A DNA stretch of 60,474 bases, the filler included, from Rhizaria sp. SCN 62-66 (Eukaryota): NCBI GenBank assembly GCA_001724265.1. It is 8 parts of 8 records of this genome, joined end to end, with 100 filler letters (N's around TTAATTAATTAA, not from the genome) between each part and the next. Parts side by side here need not be neighbours in the genome. Positions count along the whole stretch, not along the records: positions 54,239 to 60,474 come from MEDY01000620.1; 7 more parts are not named here. One strand, written 5' to 3'. Of the stretch, positions 23,201 through 60,474 are shown piece by piece. Both the position numbers and the translations under genes were made by a program. The notes below the pieces were generated by a model. That model searched no databases. It was given only the letters and a program-made list of their open reading frames with translations, and was not told where the DNA came from. The number at the start of each line of letters is the position of its first letter. Within the stretch, counting starts at the first letter, position 1.

Positions 23201-26200
23201 GTCTTCACAGCCGCGTCTTCAACTTCGCACAACGGACTTCTTGTGATGAAGCCCGTGCTGTCGTATTATGCGAGCACAATTTCTAATGCCATGTTTGCGG
23301 AGATCGAAGTTGTGGGTGGCCGCTTTGCAGCGCGCTTTGTAGCAAATGCAAGCACAGGTACGACAGCCGTTACATTCAACAGCTGTGCTGTGGAATGTGA
23401 GCTGAACAGCCTCATCTTCCCCAACGTATCTTACTCCATTATTTGCCCCATCTCCGGCTGCACTTTGCCTACGTCTGGTGAAACTACGGTTTCCGTGACA
23501 AGCGGCTTTGTGCCCGGTCCCGCAACCGAAGAGCGTGCTGTCCTGCGGCTCTCAATTGCTGCAACTGTGGTCGGCCCCGGTGACCGGCGCGTGCTGTATA
23601 GCGGGCTCTTCAACGCCCCGCGCGGCACGCTGACTGGAGGCGACACTTCTATTGGTACCGATGCAGGTTCTGCTGGAGCTTTTGCGCGCACGGTTGTCCA
23701 CACACTGACACCTGCGACCACGTTATGCAACGGCGGTGACATTGTGCTTGACACTGGAGAGTATTTCCGTCTTATGCCGCCACTGTCTGCGCACACCAAC
23801 ATGGCCTGGGAATCATTGGCCGCCGCGTAGTACACTTGGAGCTCGCCTGATTTCGCTACCAGTGGTGCAACCGCGGTGGCGCTAACTGTAACAGTTTCGA
23901 GCAAGCAGCGTTGGATTATCTTGCGCCCGCAGACCGAAAGCCGTGCCTACTGCTTTGCGGGGCGTCGGTCAAGCCTTATTTCCACTCTGCCCATTGCCAT
24001 TCCCATGATGGCGTTGGAGAGTTTTACTGTGGAAATTCTCTCCCGAGGCGGACTTGTTCGCTACGGGCACTTGGCACGAATGACGTTACTGCCCGACACA
24101 GAACTGCCTGCTGAGCTCTCACTGAGCTCGCGCGCACAAGGTGACTACTCCGCGGTGGGATACGTCAAGATCAACATCACTGAGCTCAGTGTTGGACAGG
24201 TTAAAGAAGCTCGCTTCTCACTGACTATGGGTTCGGCGTGCAACTACTTCCCCGTGGTGGGCACGAAAACTTTGATTGTGTCTGATAACGTTGTGCTTGT
24301 GGACAATCCAAGCAGTGTGTTGCTGTTCAAGACGCCTGTTGTTGACACACTTGAGTTTTACATCAAAGCCACTTCGATTCCTGTTGTAGCTTACATCCCC
24401 GGTGTGTTTTGCTCCTCCTCAGCAGACACTGCGGTCACTCTCGCGGCATACTTCGGCACGAGTGCTGCCGTTGTAATGAGCAAGACGTCGACGTTGCCTG
24501 TCGCGGCGCCTATCCCCAAGACACAAGTTGCAATGTACGCGATGCACCTTGACGGCAAGTTTGCAACAACCGCTGGTGCAATGAGGCCGCTTGTCGTGGG
24601 TATTGCCGGCTACTCTTTCAGCGATAAGTTCGATATGTCGTTTATTGTGCTCCCGGCACTTGGTATCCCTGCGGGATACTATCTTTCGCTCATTGTGCCT
24701 TGGGTGACAACCGGAGCGTTCACTGTATCCGTCCTTGACTCCGCGCATGCTGCCGTCGCCAACACTTTCCAGACTCTGGTCCCGGCCGAGCGGCGCGTGT
24801 CGGTACAGTTCATCAAAGGCTGGCCCGCGGATACACCTCTGATCATTGTGCACAGCGGTTCGTCTGTTGACCCTACTGTCACGTCGCGCGACGTCACAGC
24901 CAAGATCACGCTCAATCTCGACAGCATGTCGAGCAATATTCTTGAGCAGGGGACCGGCACAGTGTCTCTTCGCTCTGACTGGTTCAAAACGCTAACGTCA
25001 AGCGTCACTATCGCGCCGACTGCTCTTGGCAGCGGATATGCACGCGGTGTGTCACTTACGGTTACCTTCCGCGCTCCCGCTGCAACATACATTGCGGAGT
25101 CGCCAAATCCACTGTCGGTATTGCTCGTGCTGTTCCCCACTATCACGGTTGCTTCTGACCCTGCGCATGAGAGCGCCAAGTTTATCTTCTCGAACGCCGG
25201 TAGCACAACGCTGCAGTGCGGGTCACTCGCTGTCAAGACCCTTGCAACATCGCGTAAGTTTGAACGGTACGCAAGCGCGTTGTCTGCTGATGGTACGACG
25301 GTTACGTACGCCCCTGGCTTCCGCGTTGAGCTCGAGTATCAGGCCGCTGCAATCAATGACAACTGCGTTCTTACCGTCACGCACCTCCACGCGAGTAACG
25401 CTTACTACCGCGATGCTCTTGCTTTGGTCACGAAGGCTACGGTGACTCTGCTCTCTGGTGCAAGCGCGACTGTGCTCAATAGCTTTTACTACAGCACTTC
25501 AGCGGCTGCAGTTACCACAACCGGGCTTGTGAAGACAAACGTTCTTCCAACATCTTGGGCACAGATCCTCCCATTGTCACCCTTGTCCTTTAATTCGACA
25601 TCTGCGCTGCGCTTCTTGTCTGCAGGAAACGAGCTCTCGGTGATGGGACCTCAAGCCTTCTTCTACTCTGCTGCAAACGCGCGTAATGACTATGGCTTCG
25701 CTGGACTTGGAGACGTGTTTTCTATTGCTTTACGCATGCAGATCAAGACTGCACCAACTTCTGCGACCGCTGTTTGCTTTTCATTACCTGTTGGGACTAA
25801 CTCGAGCGCAACGTCTATTACACTGTACATTGACGGTCAGTCTGTGTCGTTGCCTGTTTCCGTTGCTGTGAGCTCGACCGTCTGTCCTGCAGAGTTGCAC
25901 GATTTGTTAACGACCTTTGATGCAGTTTCGTTTATGGCGGACAACGCGTCTCGCGCCGATTTGCTTCGTGCTGTGCTGCCGACGCAGTGTGTCTGTACCA
26001 ATACGGCGACGCTTCCTGCAGCTCTAAAGCAAACTGACTCTGTACTGACTGTAGTCATCTCTGCTGTCAATTTTATGCCCTCACTTCCAGCGGATGCCGT
26101 TGAATCACTGCGCATGTCTCCGCTCACCATGATTGCACCTGTCGCCAGCGTCAATGACTCGCTAGTCACTGTTGCCGCACCTGCAGTTTCTGTCAGCGCT

Positions 26201-39181: not shown

Positions 39182-40488
39182 CGCGGTCGGACAAGCGGGG
39201 AAAAAGGGGCGGGGCCGCGGGAAGGCGCGCGGAGAAAGGCGCGGGGACGGGGAAGAGGGCGCAACGGCAGCGGCGGAGGCAGAGGGAGTGGCAGAAGAAG
39301 AAGTGGGAGGAAAGCTGGGGAACAGGGGAAGGGTTTGTGCAGGGGATATGTGAGGTGTTGCACTATTCAGAGTTTTATAAAGTAGAAATCACACAGAAAT
39401 TTACGGGTATGCAGCGGTGCAAAGCGAAGTGACGAACGCCCCACGGCAAGGAACGCGATTTTTTAAAGCCAATTCGAGGGCCCTTGTCGAGAAACCGACT
39501 GCTGCCGCGCTGCGACGGCTCCAATGCCAGTGCTGTCTACTTGTGGGGCAGTAAACGACAGCAGTGCGTTATATTTAAGAAAGAAACGATGTTTTGTGCG
39601 GAGAAATAATACTATAAAATACGCGGTTACCATTAATAAGCGAAATACGAAGTGATGAAGCGCGTGCTGACGATGTGAAAATTGCCAACCAGATCATCTT
39701 GTCCACACCATCCGGTTGCCTTGGGCACTGAGCGCTCCAGCATGTATTGGCACATCCTTGGGTTATAACGCGCGTTTTCATATCAATCATGACGTTTAGG
39801 CGTTAATCCCGCCGTGGTTTTTCAGGATGCGCCCTTTCCAGTGATATATTGACGGAATAATGAATCGCCTTTGGTGACAACCTTGCTGACGGCAGTTGAT
39901 GCACACACACCAGCAGCACTGACGGTCATAGCGACCAAGTATCTTTACCAATGCATTCGCGGCTGCAGTGTTATGTAATCAAAAGTGTCGTCGTATATAT
40001 AACTGGTTTTTGTTTGAAAAAGAGACTGTTTCCCCATGCATCGTGGCCCTCGAATGTTAGCGGCGACCGTTACTTCAACAACACCTGTCGCCGCTCACCC
40101 TTGTCGTCATCCCAAACTAGACTGCCATGCAGCTAGTGCTCTTGTGGCGACTTCGTCGCTGCGGCTGCGCTTCGGGAGCGGCAGATGCCCTCGGACAACA
40201 TGTGTCAACCTGCGGCGTTGTCAGCCGGCTCCAGGACGAGTGTATTTGGGACATGACCATGTTGTGCGAAACGTATTGATTTGTATTGAGTTGAGTTTGA
40301 CTAAAGTATGAGTAGACTAACCGTAAATAAATATTACAATTTGTCGTCAAGTCGGGATAAGACGCGTTGCCAATGTTCACGTTGTCACAGCTAATGTGCT
40401 GTGAGTCGCGTAAAGCTTCTGCATGCAAAGCTTGTTTGCGCAAGCATATGGGATATTCTCTGCTGCTGCTGCCGCTGCTGTGTGTTCG

Positions 40489-42191
40489 TCAGCGCTTCTT
40501 TGGCGCCCCTTTGCCCCGCAACAACAAAGCCATAATGTCATCATCGTTCCCACCGCCGCCGCCGCCACCATCGCCGCCGCCGCCACCGCCGCCGCCACTG
40601 CCACTGCCATTCGCGGGAGCCGCGCCGGCGACAGAGCCAGCGCTTGCGCCACCGTTGGCGTTGTGGCTGACGCGAGCGTGGGCGCTCGCGCTGGAGTTGC
40701 TGTTGTTGCGGTTGTTCGCAATGATGGCGCTGAAATACGCGCTCGCGCCGGCATTCGCGTTCGCGCTGACGCCCGCGGTGCTGCCGCTGCCACCGCGGCC
40801 GTTGGTGACGGCGAGGGGGCCGCTGCTCAGACCGCTGAGGCCGGTACTTAGACCTGTGTAAGGGTGCGGCTGCGCGTTGCTTGCGCCTGTACTAACGGCG
40901 CCGGTCCCTGTGTGAGCGTTCAGTGTGGCGTTTGCATTGACGTTGCGAGAGTGAGTGTGCGCGCCGCTGGGGGGACGGGGACGGCGAGGCGGCAGCAGCT
41001 GCATCGGCGGCTGCGGCTGTGGCGGCTGTGGCTGCTGCGGCGGCGCGGGCATGGCTGCGACCGCTGCTGCTTCAGGGGAGGAGGCGACGCGACTGGCGCT
41101 CATACCCGGACCAACATCAGCAGAGCCCGCGTCTGCAGTAGCAGCAGCAGCAGCAGCAGCAGCAGCGGCGTTGCCGGTGGCGTTGGCGGTGGAGCGGCGG
41201 CCCAGTAGCGCCAGCCTCGGGTCCCGACTGCCCACGCCGACGCCGGCACTGCTCGCGCTCACACTGGGCCCGGAGGCAGCGGCAGAGACGGCAGCGGAGG
41301 CAGCAGTAGAGGCAGGGACAGACGTGTTTTGGCGCGAGCCGGAGCCCGGCCTAGCGGCAGCGTTTACAGAGACGTTGCTGATGCTGGCGTCGGCACCAAA
41401 GGGCGGCGCGGTGCTGGCGGTAATGGCGGCGCTATAGCCGGAGCCAGATCCGGGCCGGGGCCGGGCAAACGCCTGAGCTTGCTGCGGCTGCAGCTGCGGC
41501 TCTGAAGACTGTGCATGCGGTAGCGGCCGCGGACGCCCGTTGGCAGCTGCGGACCCGGCAGCAGAAGCACCGCTACTATGCGCAGTCGCAGCAGCTGCAG
41601 TAGAGGCAGCGGTGGCGGCGGCGACTGTGGCGGCGGACAAGACCCCCGCGGCCCTGAGTCGGGCCAGCAGCTCGGGGTCGCGCAAAGGTAAGCCGCCCGA
41701 GGAAGTTAGGCCGCCAGCACCGGCACCGCCACTAGTGGTACTCGTGGTATTGTTCGCAGCAGTAGCAGCAGCGCCCAAGAGTGTTGCTGAGGAGTGCGAG
41801 GAGGATGAGCGGCGGCCGGCGACTACTGAAGCGCTGCTGTTGCTGTTAGCAGCGGCGGCGGCAGCAACATTATTGCTCTTGCCTTTGTTCTTGCCCGTGC
41901 TTTTCACGAGCCCCAGCCCCGACAGCAGCAGCAGACCTAAGTCAGCACTCGAGTTGCCACGGATGATGCTGCCGCCGCTGCTATCGTAGAGTGCAAGCGC
42001 AGTCACCATATCGCCCATGCTCCAGCCCGGCAGCGCCGTCAACAGGCCGTCGACGTCGGCGGCACTCCCACTCCCTCCAACACCCGCGCCCGCGCTTGCG
42101 TCTGCGTCGCCGTTGAATGTCTGCGCGGCCGCAGAGACCGCCGCTGTCGCCGCAGTCTTCACAGCTGCCACAACATCCGCACTCGCACTGC

Positions 42192-42223
<32 letters not shown>

Positions 42224-45200
42224 TTTTTGTTGTCGGCGGTGTAAATGGCGGCCTCCAGCGCCCGCGCGGCGGCCACGCAAAGCGCCAGGTAGCGACTAAG
42301 TCCGCTGTCACCGTCGCCGTCACCGTCGGCAGAGTACATGAATGCGATACGAGAACCAGAGCTAGAGCCAGAGTCTGAGCCTGCATAAGCGCCAGAGGCA
42401 GCGGCAGTGACACGGCTGTCGGGCTGAGGGGCGAGGCTTGAGGTAGAGCTCGCGTAAGTGCTTCCGGGGACGTTGTAAGGGGCTGCCAACGCAGCCTCAC
42501 TCAGCACTTCCTCCTCGCCCCTTACCCCGGCCTTGCGGCTGCGAGCCGCGGGCCCCACATCGTGACTATTGGGGGGCAACGAGTTCCCCGCCTCGTTGCT
42601 ATGGAGCAGCGCATCGAGGTCGTAGTCAAGCAAGGCCCAGTCGTCGCTGCTCCGGCTGCCACTGAGGTCGCCGTTGCCGTCCGTGCCAGTGACCAGCGGA
42701 GCAGAGGCCCGCATCAGAGCGACGATCTCTGCAACACCGCTGAACACCCCTGCCTTCGCACTCGCACTGCCGCCGCCCACGCTGCCGCTGTCGCCGTAGC
42801 CGCCGCGACCAAGGCTGCGCGTGGCCAGCGCCGCCAGCGCGGCCGCGCGCGCCGCCGCGCCGCGGCGCCCGCCCGCGCCAGCTCCAGCGCGGCGGGCGGC
42901 GGAAGGCCGCGCGCTCGGTGGTGCGCCAGGAGAGCGCGCGCCGCCCGCGCCGCCACGGCCGAGCCGCCGAGCCCGCCGGCGCGCGCGCGCGAGCCGAGCG
43001 CGGCGGTGGAGGGCGCGGCGGGCGGCAGCAGGCGCAGGCCGGCGAGGGCGCCGAGACGCGCGAGCAGCGGCAGGAACCCCGCCATCGCCATCGCGAAGGG
43101 TTGGCGGGGCGGGGGGGCGTTGGGGGGCGGAGAAGCTAATGGACAGCTTAATGAAGCAAGTAAGTTGCTGGTGTTGTTTGAGTTATTGCTGCTGCTGCTG
43201 CTGCTGCTGTTGCTCGTTAATAGAGCTAGGAGACGTCCAGTTTGCTGGTCAACGTCACTTTCGCTATAGCACTGCTGCTGCGACAGGGTTTGCACAGATG
43301 TTGCTGATGCTGCTGTTGTTGTTGTTGGCGGCAGCAGCGAGCTGTACGCCACTGTCGGGGCGCTGCTGCCGTCGCGCCGAGCAACCACAGCGGCGGCATT
43401 CGCAAAGCGAGTACTGTTTTTCGCCCCATGTGCCGCTGTTGCAGCCCCAGGCCCAGGCCCAGTCCCGGCCTCAGCCTCAGAGTCGAACTCAAAGTCCAGC
43501 TCTTGCTCAAGCTCGAGCTCTAGCTCGGAGCCGGGGACCCAGAACCGGGCCCAGTCGCCGTCGCGAAAGCGTTCACAGTCACTCAGACACGGCTGCTCAC
43601 GGTCACTCGGAGCCCCGCCACTCGCTTTGCTCTTACGTTTGCCATCTTTGCCCTTGCCTATGCTCTGGGACTGAGTGATCGCGTGGCCGACGCTGAAATG
43701 GTTGTCGGTGCTGCCAGGGCCGCCGCCGCTGCAGCCGGTCGCGACCACCCACCCCGAGCCCAGCGACTGTGAGCCCTGTGCCCGTGAGCCGTACATCAGC
43801 GACTGCGACAGCGAGACGCCAGTACCGCCCCCACTGCTGCTGCTGCTGCTGCTGCTGCTAGTGCTATTGGAATTCACAACATTGCCGAGCGACTCTGCAC
43901 TGGCGGGCTGCGGCAGGCGCCACCACGGCCCCCACAGAGGCGGGGCCGGGTCACGGGCGAGCGCACTCACTGCTGCGGATACAGCAGCGGCAGCAGCGGC
44001 AGTCGCGGCGGAAACGCTGCTGCTCTTGCCTGTTGGAGCAGCAGCAGTCGCTGTTGCTGGCGTCGACGCCGGTTGCCTCGCCCGCCCCAACAGCCGCCCT
44101 TGCCCCTGCCCTTGCTGCTGCTGCTGTTGCAGTTGCTGTGCCTTGCCGCTCGTAGCCGTTTTTGCAGCAGGTCTCGCGCCGCTGGCAGTCGCCGTCGCCG
44201 TCGCGAGCGCCGCCACCGCGGCCACCGCCGCGGCCGCGCGCGCGGCCCACCGCCGCGCCCCCAGCGCCTGCGCGGGCCACAGCAACAGCGCCGGGGCCAG
44301 GACGCGAGACTGCGACTGCCAGGGCGACTGCGGCTGCAACTGCGATTTAGCAGTGATAGCTGTCGTAGAGTGAGCGCGTCCAACGGCGAACAGCAGCTGC
44401 GCGTAGGCCGCCGCCAGCGCTGGCCGCGACAGCTCACGCAGCCCCGGTCCAGCTCCAGCGCCAGTCACGCTTACGCTGGCGCCCGCGCCCGCGCCCGCGC
44501 CCGCGCTGTTGAGGTCGCCGGTGGCGGTGCGGCGCGCGGCGAGCGCGGCGGTGAGCCGAGCCCTGTCGCCGACACTGATGCCGGTGCCGGCAAGCCCCAG
44601 CTCCACGAGCCTGGCTGCAGCGTCTGCAACGACGCTGTGGCCGCCGCCGCTGCCGCTGCCACCGGGGTTCGAGAGCGCGAGCAGCAGCAGCAGCAGCCGG
44701 GGCGCGGCGGCGGCGGCGCGCGGCGACAGCGGGCAGTCGTCGAGCGAAAGCACACGCAGGCGGGAAAGTAAGCCGCAGGCGCGGGAAGTCAAGCCGCCGC
44801 GTTGCAGTCCCTGCTGTTGTCCTTGTTGCTGGTGATACAGATTCAAGCCAAGCGCAGAGGCGATGAGTTTCACGGCTTTGACCGAGCGGATGCCGGTGTC
44901 GTCGAGCAGCAGACGGCGCAGCGCCAGCGGCGGCGACTGATAGAGCGATTGCGATTGCGGGCAGGAGCAGGCTGACTGAGACCGCGACTGCGGCGGCTGT
45001 GGCTCCAAGAGCGACTGCGGGTACTGCGAATGCAAGCGAGGCTGTGCCTTAGAGCTCTTCAGCGCACTACCTTGTTGGCCAACACTGCTCGAGCCAGCTG
45101 GCTGGGAGCCAGCGTGCTGGCACTTGCACGTGCGCCTGGGGTACTTAGCCACAGATCTAAGTAGCCACGCAAGCCCCCGACCTCGCAGACCCGGATTCTC

Positions 45201-47000
45201 GCCCAGATCCAGCGACCGCAGCCCTCCCCCAGCCCCACCACCGCAGCCGCAGCCGCCGTAACTGCAGCCACCGCGGTGGCATCTACAACAGCAGCCGCCG
45301 AGCAGGAGTTGGCGCAGCAGCGGGCGCGGCAAGAGGCGCCGCAGCCGGCGTGGTGTGAGTGCGCACGCGCGCAGAGAGAGGTGCTGCAGTGAGCCGCTGA
45401 GGGGGTACTTAGAATGAGACGGACCCTTACACGGGCAGGCGGTGTTCTCGCCATCGTTGTCGTCGTCGCTGTCTCTGAAGGGGTAATCGTCATCATCGTC
45501 GTCGTCATCATCATCACTGTTGTTGCCGTGGACCTTGTTGCGGTTGCTGTTGCTGTCGTCTTCGTCGTCGTCGCCGGCACCGTCGTCGGCGCCGTCATCG
45601 TCGCCGTCGGCCCAGTCGGCCGATGTGAGGGCGTTGTCCAGTGTAAGGACCCTCAGAGAGCCCCCCGGCTCGGCCGCGGCCGCCACCAAGGCCGCCGCGC
45701 CGGCCACGGTCAGGGGGTTCGAGGCCAGACTAAGCGCCCTGAGGTGGCACGCCCCCGTACCGCTGCCGCGACCGCCGTCGCCGCCGCCGCGGTTGCCGCG
45801 GCTGGTAAGCGCCGCCGCCAGCGCGCGGGCCCCTGACTCCCCGACGTCGTTGTTGTCCAGACTCAGCTCCAGCACGCGGTTCCGGCGCTCTGCCCGCGCG
45901 CGCCGCCGCAGCGCCGCCAGCAGCGGCGCCAGAGCCGCCGCTGCGGCCGCGGGCAGGGGGTACGTCCACAGGGGTGGCAACGGAGGTGTCTGAGACTGAG
46001 ACTGAGACTGAGACTGAGTGTCGGAGTTGTTATCTGTGTTGTCGCGTTTGTTCCGCTTAGAGTCGGAGTCGATGTCAGCGTCAGTGTCGGCCTCAGCGTC
46101 AGTATCAGAATCAGAAGCGAGCCAGAACCGAGGCCGGTCGTCAGCGTCGTCAAACAGCTGCTCACAGTTAAGGTCACGGTCGTTGTCATTGTCATAAGAG
46201 CCAGCGTATGTGTTGTTGTTGTTGTTGCTGTGGCCGGCATTGCCGTCGTAGTCAAAGGAGCCTGAGAGGCCAAGCTCAGTGGCATTGGCACTCGTGGCAT
46301 GCACACTCGTGGCATGCACGTTACTGTCGACGCTTGCATTGGCCTTGCTCCTTGTCGCTGCCGCAGCTGCCGCTGCGGCAGCTGCTGGGGTTAGGGCCAC
46401 AGTCGCAAACGTCGGGAAACCGGTTTCCGGGTCTACTGACGACATCACAGCACCCACACTCGCTGCGTTAGACGCAAACCCAGAGCTGGAACCCGCTGTA
46501 GCAGAGAGAGTGTGGCTGTTACTTTGGACATGAGAGTCAGGGATGGAGTATCTGAGCTTGAGCCGCCGAGCGCAATGATACAGCGCCCTTACACTCGCTT
46601 CTAAGCGCCAGGCCGAGGCTCGCCAGCGCTCCAGCAGCGTCCCCGTCGCGGCCGCAGTCGCTGGCCCAGGTGTAGCCGCGGATATGTTGCTGCCGGTGAC
46701 GGCAGCATTCCTCGATCGAGCGATTGAGGCGTTAGAGCCAGCGCCAGGGGTGAGGGCGGCGGCGACGGGGGCGAAGGTGGCGAGATAGTGGTGGAAGCCG
46801 AGCGAGGCGCCCAGCGCGTCCGCGAAGTCGGCGAGCGCGAGTGTGGCGGGCCCCGTGACGGTGTTGAGCGAGAGCAGCGTCGCCAGGGAGCGCGCCGTGC
46901 GGCTCGAGGCGTGCGCGGCATGGAGAGAGATGCGGTGCCGCGGGCGGTCCAGAAGCACCAAGGTGGGGTCGCGCAGCTGGCGCAAGTCACTCACGTCCAT
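40489..47000 (-). CDS. Large low-complexity protein with RI-type leucine-rich repeats; apparent frameshift near 42850
   Basis: LRRs: LELSLDNNDVGESGARALAAAL, LRALSLASNPLTVAGAAAL, LQHLSLRACALT, LRSLDLGENPGL, LRRLLLDDTGI, LVELGLAGTGI. ORFs 42714-47000 and 40489-42780 overlap in different frames. Confidence 0.7.
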
Positions 47001-47741
47001 GATTCATGCAAGAAGTCCGAAATCTGGGTCGCAGAGGTGTGAAAAAGAGTGGTGAGCGAGCTGTTTCTAACGGATAGTTCAAATGTAAAAGCAAGGATAT
47101 CACAACCAAAAGTCCGTCAGTAGAAATTAAAGTGTCACAATACAGTGAAAAATTGCGTCTAATTTGTACTATTTCACTTATAAATGCACAAAACAAAAGG
47201 CATGCGGTCGTGTTAGAGCTTTTTGTGAGTTTTTGATGGAGACTTGTGCTCACGGTCATTGCAGGTTAAGCCGCCTGGCTGGGCGGTTACTCGCTTGGTT
47301 TGTCGGGTCGAGCCATTTTTGTTAGTTGTTGTATCTGTCTTTACAAGCGCCTTTGCGAAGCTGAATTTGAGATAAAGATATCAAACAAGCTTAGTTTGAT
47401 CTATGTTCAAATTTTTGCATCAAAGCTTTCTCAAATTCATGTGCATTTTCGAAGGCAAGAAAAATCGCTCGTTAGTTTTGGCGTCGAACCTCGATTCTGG
47501 GTCTTTAGAGCATCTTGATTGCATGTCCCCTCGTGATGTGTCATCGACATTTAAGAGCTGATAACTCCCCATGGTTTTATTTCTAACATGCAGTTGTCGT
47601 TTTACGATTCAGCGACTCGTGTTGTCCGCAAATTTGAATTCTGTGAATGGGCATTGCTCTAACCGTCACTTGCTGGTCTCTCTTTAACAGTCTTTACTCA
47701 CACTCCTTTCCACCTGTTCTATCTTTTCTTTCTCCAAACGT

Positions 47742-47769
47742 TTTTTTTTTTTTTTTTTTTTTTTTTTTT
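47742..47769 (+). repeat. Poly(T) run at the contig end
   Basis: About 28 consecutive T. Confidence 0.9.
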
Positions 47770-49381: not shown

Positions 49382-50438
49382 ATGGCAAGCGCGAACCCTC
49401 TGGACCACATGATCATCAAGTACCTCCAGTCGCAGGGCTACTTTTCGACCGCGCGCATCTTCCGCCGCGACGCCTCGTCCGGCAAGGACGACGTGGAGAC
49501 CTCGCACTCGCTCAAGGAGATGTACGACGACTACCAGGACTCCCCCGCCGCCGCCGACGCCGCGTTTGCAGTGATGCAGGCGAACGCCCCCAAGGACCTC
49601 GAGCTGGGCGCCCTGCGCGGCGGCGGCAAGGCGGCCACCGACGGCAGCAGCAGCGCGACCCTTCTGCGCGGCGCCGCGTCCGTGATTGACTCTTCTGAGT
49701 GCCCGCGTACCTTCATGGGCAACCTCCCGTTCAAGATCACTGAGGAGTTGCTGGCCGAGGCCTTCGCCGACTGCGGCCCGATCGAGAGCGTGCAGTGGAT
49801 CACCGACAAGGAGACGGGCAACTTTTACGGCACCGCATTCGTGGTGTTTGAGACGCTCGAGGGCGCCAAGGCCGCCGTCGCCGCCACGGGCCGCGAGATT
49901 CTGCAGCGCAAGCTCAAGATCAACTTCGCGCCGATGAAGGAAAAGCGCGCCGAGGCCGGCGAGAAGCGTGCGATGCCGCCCGCGCCCAAGCTGCACGACA
50001 AGCCCGAGGGCTGCCGCACGCTCTTCATTGGCAACCTTGGCTTCACGATTAGCGAGGACATGGTCCGTAACTTCTTCAGCGGCTGCGGCGAGGTCTACCA
50101 GGTACGACAATTACAACAAATACGCAGATATATCACTTTTAACGGAGGTAAAATTATTGTTTTCAAATATATTGCGTTGTTAGATATATGTCCTGCCAAA
50201 TTCACTTTAATTGGAACTGGTTATGAAAATCGAATGTCTTGTTTAAGAACGCCGCTCACTCTTTACTCACATTGTTTGTTTGTTCGTTCTTCTATAGGTT
50301 CGCTTCCAGAAGCGTGAGAGCGGCGAGTTCAAGGGCTGCGGCTTCATCGAGTTCCAGGATGAGTACGCCATTGCCAACGCCATCAAGCTCCACGCCAAGC
50401 CCCTCAACGGCCGTCCCGTGCGTCTTGACTTTGCGTAA
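49382..50438 (+). CDS. LisH-like motif plus two RRM domains (nucleolin/Nsr1-like RRMs); exons 49382-50101 and 50298-50438
   Basis: LDHMIIKYLQSQGYFSTARIFRRD; RRM1 (TFMGNLPF...FYGTAFVVF); RRM2 (LFIGNLGF...FKGCGFIEF...LNGRPVRLDFA). Intron GTACGA..ATAG. Stop is TAA. Confidence 0.88.
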
Positions 50439-50873
50439 ACACGCATGTTAAGCCGCTCGATGCGTCTCGGTGTAGTATTGTTTAGTTTGTTTTGAAACAT
50501 CAGTATATTGCGTTATTTCTAGTTTTATATATTAGTACAACAACACTTCTTGTACTCGCCATGTCAGAGTGCATATGATACATAATCAAACTTCGTAACC
50601 AGTAATTAGTCACATGACCTGCACCATCGTTTGGACATAACTACGAAATCTATTGTCGAGAAAACAGGGTAAACGCATTTTAGACGTATGTACAAGGCCC
50701 CCCAAACAACACACACACACAAAACAAAACAGCAACGTCGACAAAAAACTCAAACCCCAAGAAAGCATGACCTCGTAGAAAAAGCACTCGACCCTAGTCA
50801 CTCTGTGCCTTTTTCCCCGCGAAGAACACACGGCTTAACTTTAACACGCGGGCCGACGGGCGGGATCCCTTGT

Positions 50874-52663
50874 TCAGAAGTTGACCCTGCGCGTCTTCCA
50901 CCGCAGCAGCGTGGGCAGATCCTTATTCACGACGTCCATATACACGCCCATGCCAACGTTGCCACGCGCAACGCCCAGGTGAATGCGGGTCTGATCGACC
51001 AGCTTCTGGTCATTGAGCCCGCGCGCGATCTGGTACGCCTTCTCAAAGTACGCCACTGCGCGCTCGTGATCGCCCGCGTTGGCGGCGTTGAGACCCAACA
51101 GTGTGCACGCCTCGGCTTGCTGTCGTGGTTGCTGGTTGCGCGCAGAGAGCTCATTGCACCACGCCAGGTGCTTCCCAGCCTGCTCACGATCCCCCAGCGC
51201 CGTGTAAGCCTCGGCGATGCCCGAGTACGCCGCGGCCTCGGCCAGCTGGTCGTGCGTCTGCTTCGCAATCTCCAGATACCGCAGCTGCCACTTAAGCGCC
51301 TGCGCAGTGTCGCCGACTTTAGCGCACGCGACGCCGAGCTTGTGTGTGATTACGCCCTCGACCTTGGCGTCCCCGGAGTCAAACGCCGACTTGAGGCACT
51401 TGTGGTACAGCTCCACGGCGGCCGCGGCGTCCCCGCGCGCCATGGTCGCGTCGGCGTGGCGCTGCCCCACGTCGCACAGCTGCTTGTTGGCGTAAACGAC
51501 GCGTTCGTCGTCGTTCATCTGCAGCGCCAGCGCGAGGTGGCGCTCGTGGAAGCGGATCGCAAGCGGCAGGTCGCCCAGCGCGTCGTGCGTCACGCCCAGG
51601 TTGTTGTTCGCGATGCTCTGCTGTGCGAGATTGCCCGTACTCTCGCTTAAATCGAGGCACTTCTCGTAGAAGTACACGGAGGTCTTGTAGTCGCCACGCT
51701 CCTGGAAGTAGCTCGCGAGGCGCTCGTAGGACTCCAGTACGCGGTTCGAGTCCGCGCGGCGGTGTGCGCGCTCAGCCGAGCACAGGTTCGCCTGGACCTG
51801 GGGCAGGTGGGCCTCGGGGATCTCAGCACGGGTCGTGTCCTGTCAAGTGCAGAGAAAAGTGTTAAATGTGAGATTTGACGAGGTATACAACACAGCCGCA
51901 AGCTAACAATACATTATATAGTGATTACAACATTAAATCATATTATTCCAGAAAATAGCAACGAAAAGAAGTGAAATAAACCTTTAAAACCTTGTTGTGT
52001 AGAAGTAGCTTGGCGTACCTGGTCAGTGCGGTGAGTCAGGTAGAAAAAGTCAACGAACGAGTTGACATAGCCCTTGCACAGGGTGTCAATGCAAATGCCG
52101 TGCTTAGTAGACGCAGAGGTCGTGATACCGCCCGCCATCGTGGAATTATTGGCTCCGGTCGTGGTGAAAGGCATCTGATGTTGCTGACCGCCGGCACCAC
52201 CGCTGTTGTTATTGTTGTTGTTGAGAGAGAAAGGGGACGTGTTGGCGGTGCTCGCCTTGAAGTCGGGGTGGAGGATGTTGAGTCCCGTGGGGATCCCGCC
52301 GCCATTCTCGTCGTCATCGTGGCGGCTGCTGTGGCCACGCTTGCTCTGCTTGCTTGAGCCAGCTGCCTTGTTCGCATTGCCGCCGCTAGCGTTCACAGTC
52401 GTGTTGCTGCTGTTGCTGGAGCGGAGCGCGGAGCTCATCCAGGCCGTGTTGGGCGCAACTACCTGGCCGCTCTGCGCACCCGCAGCAGAGGGGCCGAGCG
52501 CGGCGGCGCGGGCGCCCGTGCGCGGGGCCATCCGCGCTGCGCCGCCACTGCTAGAGATGGAGCTGCTCGAGCTGGGGTGCGATCCTGCGTTTGCATGCGC
52601 GCCCGGCCGGCCCGCGGAGGGAGCGGAGGGCGCGTACTTGTCTGGGCGCGGGGCAAAAGACAT
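50874..52663 (-). CDS. TTC29: TPR protein, TTC29-like (flagellar); exons 52663-52019 and 51839-50874
   Basis: CIDTLCKGYVNSFVDFFYLTHR, tandem TPRs, and a C-terminal LLRWK motif. Phase-0 intron GTACGC..ACAG. Stop is TGA. Confidence 0.75.
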
Positions 52664-53337
52664 GACGCGCGACAGGCAGAGGGAAGCTGCGAAAGGGTGT
52701 GGCTCTGACTGGTGGTTTGTGGCGGTGGCTGGGGTGGGAGAGTGGGGCTGAAGTCGGAATGAAACGGGAGATACAGCTCGGTGAACAAGGAGGTCTCGAA
52801 ATAGAAAAATAAAAAGATCGAATTAATTCTACGCGATTAATCCTGGGTGCGTACAGTTCTGCGTCTTGTCGTTGGGAAGTGAACGAACTCGGACCGTTTT
52901 ATCTTCGTTTGGTAACCGCTCTTGACTTGGGCCTAACACGGGGGTCGTGAATTACATGTTTGTGGTGTGGCGGCACTCAGCCAGACTCCCCATCCCCGAT
53001 AAACAGCACTTGATTATCCCGTGAAATAACCGTCAATAATGCATCTAAACGCATGATTATACTTAGCACGTAGTTTGAAATATGTTTTTGTATTATTATT
53101 GTGTAAATTGCAGTATACGTGTAGATTAACCCTATCAAACGGCTCAGCCCTCCCTCAAAACTTCAGGTCAAGACATCAACTCTCTACATCGCATTTTCTA
53201 CCTGAAGACTAGATGTCAAGAGGACAAAAGGTTAAACTTAAGCACACATCACAAGGATACGCCTTCAGAAAATACCGGTTTTCAGAGGTCCCTACACGGT
53301 CTTGTAAGTCAAACATGCTATCAAAGAGGAGCTGAAA

Positions 53338-54041
53338 ATGACTGGGGATGAGGAGGCAACACGTAAGAAGCACAATGTCCCCCAGCAGTGGCTTAGTCGC
53401 ACATATCGAACGCTATCTATATTCCCTGACGTCTCAGATCAAGCACTTGCGTTAGCAATGCCTCCACACAATGATGAACGCAACCCTGGCTATGATCTTG
53501 CTCTACGCGCTCAAGGTACGCTGTACTACACGATCGAGTGCAGATTTTGGCAGTAATTTATGTTGCATTTCTCCATATAATGATTTTTTTCGTTTTAACA
53601 GTGCATTTCGTTAGTTTATGAGTATTGTCATTATTTAGATTGGATTTTATTTTTCATACTAATCAAATCACGTGTATATCCTTGTTTTCAATTTTGTCTA
53701 GGACGCAGAGCATTTAAGCCAAGTACGACAGCACATTTTCACGCCTCCTTTCGCTGGTGTACATGTGCCAGATCCAAGTCATGTCCACGGAGGAGAAGAT
53801 GACGTTCACGAAGATCCTCAACACTAACCTTGAGTCGCACCCTCGTTACATTACAGAGCGCACCACTGCTTTGGGCGCGCCCTTTCCTGTGTCTCTCAGG
53901 CGCATCAACAACGCGCTGGGCTTGAACACACGCAGAGGGCTCGCCTTCAACGCCAACACCCCCCCCAGACACCATGGAGTGCGGGGCATACTATCTACTT
54001 ATCAACTACGCCGCCAGCTCCACGTCCCTGTAGGTCCTTAA
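53338..54041 (+). pseudogene. Possible intron-containing pseudogene or short gene
   Basis: Consensus donor AAG/GTACGC (about 53516), AT-rich intron, acceptor CTAG (about 53701). The codon-biased downstream frame (KYDSTFSRLLSLVYMCQIQ...) is preceded by TAA and does not join cleanly. Confidence 0.35.
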
Positions 54042-54238
54042 GTGCCTGAGCCTCAGCCTCAGTCTCGCCGCTGTTACAGCCACAGTCGCATGGCTCAGAG
54101 TCACAGTCACACGCAAACAAACAAACAAACGAACCCGTNNNNNNNNNNNNNNNNNNNNNNNNNNNNNNNNNNNNNNNNNNNNTTAATTAATTAANNNNNN
54201 NNNNNNNNNNNNNNNNNNNNNNNNNNNNNNNNNNNNNN

Positions 54239-56721
54239 TGGCCGTGGCCGGCAGCCGCGTCGGTCGCGTTGTAACGTGGGCCCACCACGGCGCCCAGGGG
54301 CGCACGCTCGCCGTCGCCGTCATTCGCGCTCGCACTACTACTGGACAGAGCAGTGGCAGCGCTGCTGGCGCCTGTGCCGGAGCTGGCGGCGAGCGCGACC
54401 GCTACGGGGGACGGCCCGGCCGAGGCGGGCGCGGAGCCGTCGCCGTCGCTGTTGCTGTTGCTGTTGAGGTTAGTATTAGCGCTCACGCTGACGCTCATGG
54501 TGTTGTCCCCGGGGGACAGCGCCAGCGAGCCGGGACCCGAACCGGCGGCGGCCGCCGCACTGGCGCTGCCGACGCCTCCAAGCAGTGCCTGCGGCGCCGG
54601 GGACGACGCCTGCGCAGAGCCCGGCGCGACGCGCGAGAGCGTGTGGTAGCGCGCGACGATAGCGTGCGGCGCCGTCGAATGCGACCCGACGCGACCCGGC
54701 GCGCCCGCGATCGAGCCCTTGCGGCGCTGGGGGCCGGGCGCGCCGGCGGGCGCGCGGCGCATCGCGGACACGCCTGCGGCGCTCGCGCCGGCGCCCCCCG
54801 CGGCGAGACCGGCGCCGTCAAAGGCGAGCGGTGCGGGGAAGGGGATGCTGTTGGTGCGGGAGAGGCCGCCGGCGGCGGTGGGCGACGCGGCCGGGATCGG
54901 GACGGCGTCCGAAGAGACGGGCACGGTCAGACCGGGTGACTGCAGGCCGCTGCTGCCGGTCGACGCCGTCGCTGCGGCGGCGCCAGAGACCGACAGCGGG
55001 GGCGGGGGCACGACCGAGAGCGCGCGCGGGGTGGCCGAGGCCAGCGCGTAGGGTGGCAGCGCAGCCGAGTAGCCGCCCGCCGCGCCCGCGCCCGCAAAGC
55101 CGCCCGCGCCCGCGTAGCCGCCGGCGGCGCTGGCGGGGTCCTCGACGCTCATGGGCGCGGCCTTGCTGTGCAGCGCGGAGCCCTGGCCGAGAGCGCCCGG
55201 GACGGCGGGCGGCAGCGGTGCGGCGAGCGAGTAGCCTCCCGTGACGCCGAAGACGCTAGGCAGGAAGGGCGAGCGGTCCGGGCCGAACCCCGCGGCCACG
55301 GACGCGTAGCGCGGGTTATAGCCGATGCCGACGGAGCCGGCGCCGAGTCCGAAGCTAGCCAGCCCGTCGGTGCCGCCGCCGACCGTGTGGCCGTCGTAGC
55401 CGTAGCCCGCGCCGGCGGCGGAGGCGGCGGCGGCGGCGGCGGCGGCGTCCGCTGCGGACGAGGCCGAGGCGGAGAGTCTGTTGTCTGCGATGACGCGGCG
55501 GCGACGCACCATAAGGTACACGAGCCACTCGACGAGCGAGATGCACAGCGCGAAGATGGCGAAGCCGCGCAGGCCGGCCGAGTTGGCGAGCCCGGCCTTG
55601 ACGGAGCAGTAGACGACCGAGAAGAAGGCAACAAAGAGCGCGAGCGACGCGGCGCGCGGGGCCAGCTGGAAGCGGTAGGCGTAGGCAAGGAAGAGGATCG
55701 CGAAGCGGAAGAGCGCCATGAGTAGGATGTCGACGCCGTCGTCGCGGAAAGAAAAGTAGCGCACATCGTGGTCGATGTCGTAGAAGATGTTGGAGAAGGA
55801 GTTGTCGCCGTGCAGCAGCGTGTGGTAGAGCGCGATCGACAGCACCAGGTCGACGATAGTAAGGAGGCGGGCGGCCGAGGAGAGGATCATGAATGCGCAG
55901 CACGCGCCCAGGAAGTAGCAGTGCGAGCAGAAGCGCTCGACGTCGAAGCGCATACAGGGCCCGCAGCAGCGCGCCTTGAAGCGGCCGCAGCAGCCACGCG
56001 GGGCCGCGGCGCCGGGCTCGCCGTCGGCGCCCAGCGACGAGCCGCCGGGGCCGTCGAACCAGCCCAACCCACCCGCGCCGCCGCCGCCCATGTCGTCGTC
56101 GTCGTCGTCGTCGCCCATCGCCGCGTGCGACAGCATCACGCGCCGCGCGGGCCGCAGTGTCGAGCCCGCGGCCCCGTTACCATGGCGGCCGACGGAGCCG
56201 TTGTACGACGTGCCGCCCGCCGCGTTGCCGTAGCCGCGGCCGAAAGTGGCGCCTCCGCTCGCGCGCGGGGCCGCTGCGTTGGCCGTCACGGTCACCGAGT
56301 GCGGGGAGGAGAGCTCGTCGGTGGGGGGCCCGTCGCTCGAGATAGAGCTCGTGCGCACCTTGCTGCGGCCGGCCGCGGTCGCGCGCGGGCCCGCGGGGGC
56401 GCTGGTGCTGCCCAGGCCCGCGTAGGCCGCGTGCTGACTCATGTTAGCGCTAGAGGCGGACTTGACGGAGTTGGAGTTGGAGCTCGCGCTGTTGGAGAAC
56501 TGGGACTGGAAGCCTGAGCTCGACTTCTGGCCGCCGGCTGCGGCAAACGCGTTCGGGCGGGCGTTGCCCGACGACGACGAAGCGGCGAGGTCGCCGAACG
56601 AGTGATGGTGCTGCTGCTGCGGCGGCAGCGGGCCGCCGTGCTCGTGGTCCGAGTCGTCGGGGTGCAGCAGCCCGTCGGTGGTGTTCTTGCGCGGGCGCGT
56701 GCCCAGCGGGGAGAGCGACAT
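54239..56721 (-). CDS. Membrane protein with a 4-TM MENTAL-like (or ABCB9 TMD0-like) domain in low-complexity flanks, 3' truncated
   Basis: LLTIVDLVLSIALY...DVRYFSFRDDGVDILLMALFRFAILFLAYA...YCSVKA...ISLVEW resembles the recalled STARD3/STARD3NL pattern FDLL...DIFLLAVFRFKVLILAYA...AWIETW. Confidence 0.7.
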
Positions 56722-57447
56722 GCGCGACAATCACCCGCCTCGGTTCACGCCGCAGGAGGGAGAAACGTGTTGGGCGGGAACGAGGAAAGGGAGCGAGGGG
56801 CGCGAGGCACCAAGCAAACAGGTGAGAAGTGGGACCTCAGTGACTACCAACCGAGCAGTAGGCACGCGGGCGGAGCAGTTCGGAGAGTCGATACGTGTCA
56901 AACACGTAAGGTGCTCTGTGTCAGAACATGGCAAAAGGTGCGGAGAGAAAATCGTGAGGAAGTCGGGTGCACAAACGGTGAATTAAACATGCCCCCGCGC
57001 TCACACTTTGAATTATCCGTGCGAAATGCGAACAGCAATAACACTGCATATACAGTAGCTTACGGGTTTTCGTAATAGAATATGGTGGAAAACGCATAAA
57101 TAAAGTAGGTATACGATGTACAAAAGAAAAACTGCGAAGTGATCGCACACATCTCCCTGTGTAAATCGGACTTACGACGTCACCGCCACCACTGCGGTCG
57201 ACGAGGCGGTGGCACCGAGACAGCAAAAAGCAATCGGGTGGTGGCCAAAAGTCGTTCCGGATATCTCGATCAATCTATCGTCTGACGTACGTTTGACGCC
57301 ATTACGCTCACTGAATAACACTTCTGTTCATTATATTTAAATTAAATTTTCTGGGATCTTGATATAGCCCTAGGTCTACGCCCTTCTGTAAGAGACATCT
57401 CCCAGTCCAGACCTTCGCCCTCGCGCGTCCCGCCTCTCCCGTCCCCG

Positions 57448-59958
57448 ATGGCGACCGTGGCGGCTTGTCCCTCGCGCGCCGCGTCCCCCACGCCGGCCTA
57501 CCTTGCTGGCGCCGAGCTGCTTGCCCCGCGCTACGTCTCGTACGCGGGCCCCGACGCGCGCGGCCGCTGGGTCCTGCTGATCGTCTTCGCTTTCTTCGCA
57601 TACTCCTACGTGGCTTACTTGCTCACCTCTAAGGTCGACCGCGTCATCTCAGCCGACATCGTCACGGCGCCCGCGCAGCTCCCCGTGCTCGCCGCCGCGC
57701 TGCGCGCCTCGCTCTTCGCGCTGCCGCTGCGCGTCGCTGTCGTTTCCTCCGCCGACGCCCCCGTCTCCCCCACCGTCGCCGACTCAGTCTTCGCCCGCAT
57801 CTCAACCGCCGCCGCGCGCGCCGCTGCGGCTGTCACTGGCGCACCCGCGTCCTCGGCCCGCGTGGTCTCCTTTGCGCCCACTTTGACCGCGCTGACTGTC
57901 GCGCCCGCGCTCCTGACTGAGCTCGCGACCGTAACCTCCGCCGCCGCCGCCGCCGCTGTTGCGGCGACCGCGAAGCCCGCCGCCGCCGCTGCCGCCACCG
58001 CGGTCGCCGACGCCGCGCTCTCTGCACTCCTCGCAGTATACGACAACAACAACGCCGCCAGCGCTCCGAGTGACGAGATCACGGTAGTTATTGTGGACTC
58101 TGCAGCGTTCAAGCCCGCCGCATCATCCGAGGCGGCGAATGCATCGAAGGCAACGAAGGACTCTGCAGCAGTGTGGACGATGGGTCCTGGCACCAAGGCC
58201 TGGGCCACGATGCCTCTTTTGCGCTCCGACGCCGCCACTGACGCCGCGGCCGACGCGGTGGCGTCCCTGCTCGCTGCCGCTCTGCTGCCCTACGCCGCAG
58301 CCATCTCCGCCTCCTCGTCCGCCGCCAACACCGACTCTGCCGCCGCCGCTGCCGCCGCGCTGCCCCCCAGTGCGTTCGGGCTTCCGGGCCTTGCCTGGAC
58401 GCAGTACGCGGCCCTGCGCTCGGCGCTGCCGCCGCGGCGCGCGCTCGCGCTCACGGTCGCGCTCGCGCACGCAGTGCCCGCCGACCCTGCTGACTCAGCA
58501 GGGGACGGCGGGGTTATTCGGGTGAAGTGTGCGAAGAGTGGCGGCAACGGCGATCAGTGTGTGGAGCAGCGTGCGCGGCTTGTGCCCTGCTCACAGTCAC
58601 CGAGCGGGTGCCCGCGGTCGCTCTCCGCGGCGCGCGACATCATGCCTTTGCTCTCGCCGCTGCTCGCCGCTCTCAACGCAGACGTTAACTCCCAGTTTCA
58701 GTCGCAGTCACATTCAGCGGACGACGCAGTCGCTGGCGCCGCCATTGGCGCCGCCGGCGTCGCAGTGACTCTGAGCGCGGTCACGACGCACGCGGTGCCG
58801 CTGCTGCCCGCGGCTCGCGCGCTCACTGCCATACACGGCAAAAGCAACGGCAACGGCAGCGGAAACGGAAACGGCAACGGCAACAACGGCATCGCTGTGT
58901 CTGTGTCGGAGGCGGTGTTGCTGTCAGCCGTCACGAAGGGCAAGAGCCTCTGGGACAGCCCTTCCGTCACCACAACCACCACGACGTTCGCCACCAGCAA
59001 CAACGATGATCACGTGGTTGACGAAGACACGGAGCAGGGCTCGCTCACCATCCTCGCCGTCGCGCCCCCTGCGGCCGCGGTGACCGTGGGCGGCCAGAGC
59101 GCTACCAATGACCGTGAGCGCCCTGCGACTGTGGGCTGGGGTGTCGTTGACGCCCACGGTCACCCGCTGCCACCGCTGCTGCTGCTGCCGCGCTGGGGCG
59201 CCGCTCTCTTGCTCAACAGCAACAGCAACGCCGAAAACAACGCCAGCAGTGTGGGCAGCGGTGAGCGCAGCGGCGACAGCGGCCTGCATCCTGCGTCCGA
59301 CGCGGTGGCCTCGGCCGCGGCCGCCGCGCTGCGCCTGGCCCTCGGGCTGCCCCCCGCCGTGCCGCGCGCCCCGCTCTCCCTCCCCATCCCCTAGCCCGAA
59401 CACCCTCGCTCTCGCGCCGCTGACGTCAAGAGCGCTGACAGTGCCGTCGCCGTCGCGTCGCCGCAGCATGCCGTGTTCGCCCCGTCGAGCGCGGGCGTCT
59501 GCGGCTGGGAGTTGCTACTCTGGCGCCGCCTGCGCGCCTGGGACGCGCTGTCCGCGGCCACCGCGGCGCTCGTGTCCACCGCCGAGCTGCTGGCCAAGGC
59601 GCCGCACATGCCGTTCCCGAGGGGGCAGGCCGCGCGCGCGGGCCGGGCGCTGGCGCTGCTGCGCGAGGCCCAGGCGCACCTCCAGTCTAAGGGAGGCTCT
59701 ATGAGTGTAAGTGCCGGTGTGTCTGCGCCGTCGAGCGCGGCCGCGACGGCCGCTGCGTCGGCGCTGCTGCGCGCGAGCAGTGCTGCGCGCGCGGCGCTGT
59801 TTGACGCGGGCATGGTGCCGCTGCTCTATTTCCCCGACGAGCACGCGTACGCGGTCTACGCGCCGCTGTTCGCGCCCATCATCGTGCCTGTGCTCGCCGC
59901 GCTCTTCAAGCTTGCCAAGGCCGCCGTCGCCAAACGCAAGGCTGTCAAGCAGGCGTGA
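57448..59958 (+). CDS. PIGS: GPI transamidase subunit PIG-S/Gpi17 with an in-frame TAG at 59392-59394
   Basis: N-terminal TM followed by TSKVDR, then LLPRWG and LRLALGL. After the TAG, in the same frame: GWEL...LVSTAELL and ALFDAGMVPLLYFPDEHAYAVYAPLFAPIIVPVL, the PIG-S C-terminal signature and TM. Stop is TGA. Confidence 0.88.
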
Positions 59959-60400
59959 TGTGGGCTGTGTGGTAAGCTAGTCAGCAAGATAGGATTGAGT
60001 TGCGAAGTGGCGTTTTTGCTGAAATTATACGTTATTTAGATAAGATCATTGGCCATGGACTTCAATTAATACAAGTCAAGATTTGGTGTCATCAAGCGAG
60101 TTGTGAAGTTGGTTTGAGATAGTGTTCGTATTGCAGTTACATGAAGGTGTGTGATTGAACAAACTTGGTAGAGTGTATTCTTGTTTGAATTGAAAGGTTT
60201 TTGATTTTGCTTCGCTTGCTGAAATAACAGGTTTGAAGTTCACTTTGATCACGGGGCTCACATCACTGACACTGACGCTGCGCCACGAAGGAGCAGCATC
60301 TCCGAACGCCAAAATGAAACGTAAAGAAACAAAAAATATAAAGTTGTTGTTGGAAGTAAAAACAGAAAAAGAAAAAGTAGTATATCTATAAGCGGAGTAT

Positions 60401-60458
60401 AACTCACACGAACAAAAATGAACTATCACAACTCACACGAACAAAAATGAACTATCGC
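60401..60458 (+). repeat. 29-bp tandem duplication
   Basis: AACTCACACGAACAAAAATGAACTATC(A/G)C occurs twice. Confidence 0.85.
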
Positions 60459-60474
60459 ATAAGTCATCACAACT

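Follow-up and report, generated by a model that had tools for sequence, protein, structure and literature searches.

An in-frame TAG in a PIG-S-like gene of Rhizaria sp. SCN 62-66, tentatively a UAG codon read as sense

This report concerns a gene for a PIG-S / Gpi17-like protein of Rhizaria sp. SCN 62-66 (GenBank assembly GCA_001724265.1) and the TAG codon that interrupts its reading frame, PIG-S being a core subunit of the glycosylphosphatidylinositol (GPI) transamidase. The gene lies in the last part of the window, by which we mean the whole 60,474-nt stretch of DNA analysed, made up of eight contigs. Two stop-to-stop open reading frames (ORFs), 57346..59394 and 59395..59958, adjoin in one frame at this locus with a single stop, a TAG, between them, as had been claimed in a preliminary description made from the sequence alone. 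The start given there for the second ORF (59473) is the GTG used by the gene caller for the downstream ORF P0007 (161 aa). The locus contains the following features.

57448..59958, plus strand: PIG-S / Gpi17-like coding region, 836 codons plus TGA when read through the TAG
57571..57627, plus strand: N-terminal hydrophobic segment, aa 42-60 (Kyte-Doolittle 19-residue mean 2.14)
59377..59475, plus strand: 33-codon stretch, aa 644-676, missing in the relative P0004 (gap in the BLASTP alignment)
59392..59394, plus strand: in-frame TAG, codon 649, in the context ATC CCC TAG CCC GAA
59827..59844, plus strand: YFPDEH motif, aa 794-799, 3' of the TAG (all residues but D invariant in 12/12 aligned sequences)
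59851..59907, plus strand: C-terminal hydrophobic segment, aa 802-820 (Kyte-Doolittle mean 2.18)
59956..59958, plus strand: likely true PIG-S terminator TGA, where the ORF ends and 41%-GC non-coding DNA follows

The strongest evidence for a single gene comes from P0004, an uninterrupted protein of 816 aa from another metagenome, which is collinear with both halves (aa 23-827, 290/814 identities in BLASTP). The alignment takes in the N-terminal hydrophobic segment and the motifs LGLPP and GWELLLW, and P0004 ends within about 15 residues of the point of the terminal TGA. Judged from these sequences, the two ORFs are one PIG-S gene broken by one genuine TAG, which agrees with the preliminary description. 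The read-through protein scored 104.1 bits against the PIG-S profile PF10510 (curated cut-off 26 bits) in a single match that crosses the TAG (aa 579-827, profile positions 321-512), and the downstream part alone scored 95.5 bits. The upstream part alone gave no match to PF10510 at E<=1; the earlier statement that PIG-S motifs lie on both sides is true, although the upstream side is weaker than it implied. P0014 and P0017 also align in one stretch, from about 70 residues upstream of the TAG to the C-terminus. The two motifs that define the frame, LRLALGLPP (6-10 codons upstream of the TAG) and GWELLLW (37 codons downstream), agree in frame, and the GC content at third codon positions (GC3) is 0.82 upstream and 0.87 downstream.

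For the residues conserved across the family, the window protein was aligned with 11 of the 154 listed proteins, chosen because they were long or because their match started before the TAG. All 14 family-invariant residues downstream of the TAG are intact in this 12-sequence alignment, and the conserved LYFP(D/E)EH block at 59824-59844 is invariant in 12/12 at every residue but the D/E position. PIG-S proteins have hydrophobic (membrane) segments near both ends. The present protein resembles PIG-S / Gpi17 (PF10510) in its Pfam score above the cut-off, its YFPDEH block and its hydrophobic segments at both ends; it differs from the family in its length (836 aa, against about 520-630 in most full-length matches), its many Ala-rich insertions and the in-frame TAG. 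In a profile-free HMMER search of 1.84 billion representatives, 576 PIG-S-like matches were obtained at E<=1e-3, and those at E<=1e-30 were only the window's own P0003 and P0007 together with P0004. An intact second PIG-S, of which the window copy could be the pseudogene, had been considered in the preliminary description and did not turn up among these representatives. P0004 is on one contig and P0003 on five, which speaks against both sharing one genome. An alignment search of metagenome contigs and genome contigs with PIG-S for an orthologous locus gave no match.

The TAG at 59392 is real DNA and no slip of a single assembly. Over 58555-60143, the Logan contigs assembled from two DNA runs, X2 (record 6) and X3 (record 14), match the window without a single difference or gap, so the letters of the TAG, for which the preliminary description had proposed a check against reads, are the same there; since the X2 and X3 pieces are identical, the two runs may be one data set. 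Five contigs on record carry P0003, the upstream ORF of 648 aa that this TAG closes, and among the 90% clusters no read-through form of PIG-S of 459-1463 aa was found. Strain variants were also seen at the locus: about 0.7-1% of positions are different from the window in X4 contigs (56645-57692 and 59479-60375) and in the RNA run X7 (59624-59777), for example 59693-59694 GA>AG (Gly>Glu) and 59746 A>G (Thr>Ala), and these variants point to a second strain or allele of the organism in another study.

The TAG lies within the 33-codon stretch that P0004 lacks (59377-59475), whose in-frame GC at the first, second and third codon positions is 0.76/0.58/0.79. The distant P0014, P0017, P0010 and P0025 have about as long a linker between LGLP and WELL/WELD, while in others it is short, as in P0004. 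The TAG therefore sits in a linker that is variable across the family but translated. P0004 and the 12-sequence alignment bear out the earlier view that this linker is unconserved and that the residue cannot be read from it. The product around the site would read ...LSLPIP-X-PEHPR....

A second in-frame TAG was found on another contig of the window, contig 4.

20237..26827, plus strand: long ORF of 2197 codons that fills contig 4, rich in Ser, Thr, Ala and Val, with a single internal stop
23828..23830, plus strand: second in-frame TAG, codon 1198 of the long ORF

The long ORF matches no Pfam family. P0005 (1828 aa, on four contigs) is 72% identical to it over 1375 aa with 10 gaps, aligns without a gap at the TAG and has Gln there (AAAXYTW in the window, AAAQYLW in P0005). 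Since the alignment with this Gln is free of gaps, an intron is excluded at 23828; either the TAG is read as Gln or a CAG was turned into a stop. P0006, a 100% identical protein of another assembly, stops at precisely this TAG. A contig of 49.7 kb is also on record with the first part of the long ORF. The read-through product around the site would be ...SLAAA-X-YTWSSPDFATSGATAVALTVTVSSK. Thus one of the two TAG sites carries information about the residue, Gln in P0005, the PIG-S site being in an unalignable linker. Loci related to the long ORF were sought by alignment among metagenome contigs and genome contigs, with no match.

The window was scanned for in-frame stops with at least 40 open codons required on each side and the own frame scoring best of the six on both sides. 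Five sites passed, namely both TAGs, TAA 38104, TGA 13829 and TGA 8809, of which the last three lie directly after intron donors. A stricter codon-score scan with 25-codon flanks returned no sites and missed both known TAGs too, and was too strict. A scan on GC3 alone was dropped, as sense and antisense frames could not be told apart by it. One further TAG candidate, 37636-37638 on the minus strand, was rejected: its upstream "ORF" is non-coding-like and has no Pfam match, and the TAG lies inside a modelled intron (37685-37507).

The ends of genes were then compared with the use of TAG inside them. Among 27 coding-like ORFs of at least 100 codons, five cut by contig ends, four ending in modelled introns and the two rows with an in-frame TAG were left out. 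That left 16 ORFs, of which 12 stop at TGA, four at TAA and none at TAG; of the six-frame ORFs of at least 100 codons, 51/210 end in TAG (24%), which puts the probability of 0/16 at about 0.012. The coding frames contained no in-frame TAA, the sole candidate (TAA 38104) following a GTACGA donor. In the 25 ORF pieces taken as coding (13,037 codons), TAG occurs twice, CAG 325 times and CAA 87 times.

Our tentative reading of these data, to which we give a probability of about 0.45, is that UAG is read as sense, probably as Gln, at an early or inefficient stage. UAG would be recognised as a stop not at all or only weakly, with UGA and UAA as the terminators. The tRNA that decodes it as Gln would be either a tRNA-Gln(CUA) that arose from tRNA-Gln(CUG) or the near-cognate tRNA-Gln(CUG) itself, and a weakened recognition of UAG by eRF1 would accompany this decoding. 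The PIG-S mRNA would be translated through codon 649 into one protein of 836 aa that keeps the YFPDEH motif and the C-terminal hydrophobic segment. The rarity of TAG points to an early or low-efficiency stage and not to an old reassignment.

Several points weigh against this reading. First, the evidence comes from two sites, of which one is informative about the residue, and CAG to TAG is the commonest transition that creates a stop. Second, the first-position T/C synonym pair TTG:CTG stands at 124:470, from which about 86 TAG would be expected against the two seen, a deficit of about 40-fold for a neutral synonym of Gln. With two TAG against about 86, it is unlikely that the reassignment is old and fully established as in exLh or Iotanema; any decoding of UAG as sense would have to be recent or costly. 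The proposal of the preliminary description that UAG is decoded as an amino acid thus gained the second TAG opposite a Gln and the absence of TAG from the 16 gene ends, whereas the codon usage does not fit it. Third, these 16 ends are putative terminators (TGA 7334-7336, for example, overlaps GTGAGT) and a standard-code organism may simply disfavour TAG, so the 0/16 is supportive but not decisive. Fourth, no tRNA(CUA) is present in the window, where the sole tRNA is a tRNA-Asp, and the codon model of the scan was trained partly on the PIG-S ORFs, so the scan score at 59392 is not independent.

The long ORF adds doubts of its own. Its GC3 is 0.58, against 0.82-0.87 for PIG-S, and its relative synonymous codon usage correlates better with the low-GC3 genes of other contigs (r = 0.83) than with the high-GC3 genes (r = 0.67); it shares the preferences ACG>ACC, CGC>>CGA and GGC>GGT>GGA>GGG. 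The two TAGs are on different contigs of the bin, and the long ORF may come from another organism. It also resembles a member of a surface-protein family, whose genes often decay, and P0005 could be a paralogue. A further disturbed locus lies at 42700-43182 on the minus strand, where ORFs 47003..42714 and 43182..40489 overlap in different frames and the coding signal changes frame near 42870-42800, in DNA of about 90% GC without a GT. A frameshift, an indel introduced in assembly or a pair of abutting genes may explain this break; a fused relative of the gene at 40489-47003 was searched for and none found. The break may hint at lesions or assembly indels that disrupt ORFs in this bin.

Only two accounts fit the data, an early or inefficient reassignment and two nonsense alleles. 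Under the latter, which we consider unlikely although it is the strongest of the alternatives, the code is standard and both TAGs are genuine nonsense mutations, in recent pseudogenes or loss-of-function alleles without further damage as yet; PIG-S would be truncated after residue 648 and be non-functional, or be rescued by an unseen second copy. TAG is extremely rare in the coding set, as expected of a stop, and is the likeliest stop to arise in one step (0.62-0.66 in PIG-S, 0.47-0.49 in the long ORF). A change from Gln to stop by C>T fits the Q of P0005, and 0.11-0.29 of one-step nonsense mutations in the long ORF would start from a Gln codon; with these figures, neither two TAGs nor a Q in the relative is more than mildly surprising under nonsense. 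The long Ser/Thr-rich ORF without a known domain may belong to a family prone to decay, and the possible frame break in a third gene would suit a genome rich in lesions. Nor is the open frame of 187 codons downstream of the PIG-S TAG by itself evidence of function in DNA of 72% GC, where the neighbouring wrong frames are open for 144-206 codons. However, two of about 20 genes in 60 kb would each have to carry a fresh and otherwise clean stop, one of them in a core subunit of the GPI transamidase. Downstream of the PIG-S TAG the 14 invariant residues are intact and GC3 is 0.87, and the library of 1.84 billion representatives has no second close PIG-S. The TAG form alone is on record (five contigs for PIG-S, two for the long ORF), which argues against a heterozygous allele picked by chance. 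That both stops are TAG (about 0.3), that one aligns with Gln (0.11-0.29) and that 0/16 coding ORFs end in TAG (about 0.012, at the six-frame share) are each mildly unlikely under this account.

A spliceosomal intron at the PIG-S TAG was weighed against the introns of the window. Seven were modelled from jumps in composition and continuity of frame, three of which are also demanded by the continuity of Pfam domains; the intron candidate at PIG-S is listed with them.

3192-3356, plus strand: modelled intron
16020-16156, plus strand: modelled intron
38110-37893, minus strand: modelled intron
37685-37507, minus strand: modelled intron
8821-8683, minus strand: modelled intron
8370-8195, minus strand: modelled intron
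7774-7634, minus strand: modelled intron
59359..59394, plus strand: candidate 36-nt in-frame intron, judged unlikely (GTGCCG...CCCCTAG, 78% GC, no G at +5, acceptor TAG)

The modelled introns are 137-218 nt long with 34-40% GC, have donors of the form GT[AG]CG[TCA] (GTACGT, GTACGC, GTACGA or GTGCGT) and all end in CAG (7/7). An atypical, GC-rich in-frame intron, either 59359-59394 (36 nt) or 59359-59466 (108 nt, GTGCCG..CGCAG), would remove the PIG-S TAG; the TAG of the long ORF would in that case have arisen separately as a nonsense mutation or belong to a different organism. Some features agree with this: there are 55 in-frame GT..AG pairs (up to 400 nt) with the TAG between them, a pyrimidine run (CTCTCCCTCCCCATCCCC) lies directly 5' of it, the nearest relative P0004 lacks 33 residues at the linker, and removal of the 108 nt would leave a linker of 13 residues, near the 16 of P0004. 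We nevertheless consider it improbable. None of the 55 pairs has a donor of the type seen in 7/7 modelled introns, the GC content is 74% or more in every one, and the acceptor of the 36-nt candidate is TAG where those of the modelled introns are CAG. These are the grounds, together with its 78% GC and its GTGCCG donor, on which the poor fit noted in the preliminary description was confirmed. Furthermore, the VPRAPL that follows the 59359 donor can still be aligned with ALPAPL of P0004, no GT stands at the edge of the 33-residue gap, the 36 nt have a GC3 of 1.0 when read in frame, other PIG-S proteins have a comparably long linker that is translated, and at several further points of the alignment the window protein has insertions of 12-24 residues that P0004 lacks. 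The second TAG is not explicable by an intron. As regards transcripts, the listed contigs of the polyA metatranscriptome X7 cover 57534-58044 and 59624-59777 and the listed X4 contigs 58910-59103 and 59479-60375; no listed piece of X7 or X4 bridges 59392, and among 15 of 93 joints none is at 59359-59394.

Correction of the TAG at the RNA level is a very improbable alternative, by A-to-I editing of UAG to UGG (Trp) or by U-to-C editing to CAG. It would account for a fixed genomic TAG in an intact essential gene as well as for the rarity of such codons. At premature stops in some filamentous fungi, UAG is edited to UGG by A-to-I conversion, and donors of the GTACGT/GTGAGT type are common in fungi and their relatives. 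On the other side, the residue of the relative at the second site is Gln and not Trp, and nuclear U-to-C editing is not known from protists. Editing is also not favoured by RNA structure, since the 109 nt from each TAG showed no unusual fold (z = +0.85 and -0.15; +1.62 for the TGA terminator as a control). CAR-YYA is a known read-through context; the codons downstream of the two TAGs are CCC GAA in PIG-S and TAC ACT in the long ORF, neither of which fits it. Finally, a true stop that leaves the gene naturally split or truncated, with a 648-aa N-terminal product and with or without a separately started C-terminal piece, is hardly credible: gene callers do give two ORFs, P0003 and P0007, but there is no in-frame ATG from the TAG to Met 721 (KAPHMPF), which is itself inside a conserved block, the GTG start of P0007 is a typical choice of a prokaryotic gene caller, and 0/11 of the other aligned PIG-S proteins are split at this point.

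If UAG is read as Gln in this organism, the change would be of a known kind. Reassignment of UAG alone has been reported from few eukaryotic lineages, and the cases described in PMC11687900 and PMC5304391 are all mature, with UAG frequent in genes. They include Iotanema spirale (Gln), the rhizarian exLh (Leu), Scotinosphaera (Ser), and Protocruzia and phyllopharyngean ciliates (Gln, Leu, Glu) (PMC11687900, PMC5304391). For Iotanema spirale (Fornicata), 204 in-frame UAG in 126 genes are given, with 104 UAA, 15 UGA and 0 UAG as terminators (PMC5304391). As far as that description goes, our case is similar in that UAG alone would be affected, Gln is the likely meaning and the putative terminators include no UAG (TGA 12, TAA 4, TAG 0); it differs in having two UAG in about 13,000 codons, TGA and not TAA as the main terminator, and GC-rich coding sequence. 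Judged by sequence comparison, it would work like the Iotanema code but fails its feature of codon usage. In exLh, 82/86 hyperconserved UAG positions are reported as Leu, and 71 UAG in eight proteins (PMC5304391). Like the change proposed here, as far as exLh is described there, it is a UAG-only change in an uncultured protist that was detected from in-frame UAG in conserved genes and a lack of UAG terminators; unlike it, exLh uses UAG often and as Leu, whereas the single informative site here has Gln.

UAG has been reassigned alone and independently several times, as Gln in phyllopharyngean ciliates and the ciliate Protocruzia tuzeti and as Leu or Glu in other lineages, according to PMC11687900. 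The window, with its GC-rich genes, AT-rich introns of 137-218 nt and AT-rich spacers, does not in our judgement look like a ciliate macronucleus. UAR is read as Gln (NCBI table 6) in many ciliates, Hexamita, Ulvophyceae, Streblomastix and Amoeboaphelidium (PMC11687900). Those codes, as listed there, give a former stop the meaning Gln, as the present case would, but here the coding frames showed no in-frame TAA and four coding ORFs appear to end in TAA. For Amoebophrya, about half of the transcripts are stated to contain in-frame reassigned stop codons (PMC6394959). The literature outside subscription journals yielded no account of altered UAG decoding in a GC-rich eukaryote from wastewater, nor, in work on stop codon reassignment and activated sludge, in any eukaryote. 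Should the sense reading be true, a new lineage would be added to those with this known kind of code change, perhaps at an intermediate stage of it.

One form of such a stage is early codon capture, in which UAG has gone from the ends of genes (0/16) and is only starting to reappear inside them as Gln (2 per 13,000 codons, against about 86). This more specific proposal is doubtful. If it were true, there would be a natural intermediate between the standard code and a UAG=Gln code of the Iotanema type, in a lineage not known to deviate, and a UAG rare inside genes and absent at their ends would represent the state debated by the codon-capture and ambiguous-intermediate models. The stage would be open to tests by a tRNA survey, the eRF1 sequence and proteomics. 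If the TAGs are nonsense alleles, the finding is ordinary. For annotation, gene callers gave PIG-S as proteins of 648 aa and 161 aa and the long ORF as a 1551-aa fragment; standard callers split such genes, and annotation would therefore need the changed code.

The eight contigs of the window occupy 1-6664, 6765-13432, 13533-20136, 20237-26829, 26930-35771, 35872-47769, 47870-54138 and 54239-60474. The seven spacers between them have the form N44-TTAATTAATTAA-N44 and contain a stop in every frame. Because the contigs were joined, ORFs or repeats crossing a spacer are artefacts, and "genes" on separate contigs are unlinked. Spacers and RNA genes are as follows.

6665-6764, 13433-13532, 20137-20236, 26830-26929, 35772-35871, 47770-47869 and 54139-54238: spacers
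29038-29110: tRNA-Asp (GTC), the sole RNA gene found in the window

The DNA of the window was found in bioreactor and wastewater metagenome runs. Its genes are GC-rich (GC3 mostly 0.67-0.91), and the introns and the DNA between genes are AT-rich. Pfam matches include a DEAD-box helicase split by an intron, a MYST acetyltransferase in three exons, an RRM protein, and Sushi, LRR and Arm repeats. These eukaryotic genes indicate a bin of an uncultured eukaryote. Atlas look-ups with the MYST and DEAD-box proteins returned Eukaryota with a mixture of phyla and no finer placement.

Some minor observations concern the neighbour of PIG-S and the contig ends. On the minus strand at 54241-56730, divergent to PIG-S, an ORF of 830 codons runs off the contig; it has a GC3 of 0.91, matches no Pfam family, and shows long Ala/Gly/Ser runs and hydrophobic stretches in the middle of the protein. 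The ends of contig 2 (6765-6872 and 13325-13432) are perfect inverted repeats of about 108 nt (spacer subtracted), either a hairpin-type assembly artefact or real terminal inverted repeats. At the contig end 60271-60474, a direct repeat of about 27 nt occurs twice (AACTCACACGAACAAAAATGAACTATC), and the summed contig depth is 18-422 in all four runs, against about 5 nearby; the repeat is probably dispersed or tandem, and the assembly probably broke there.

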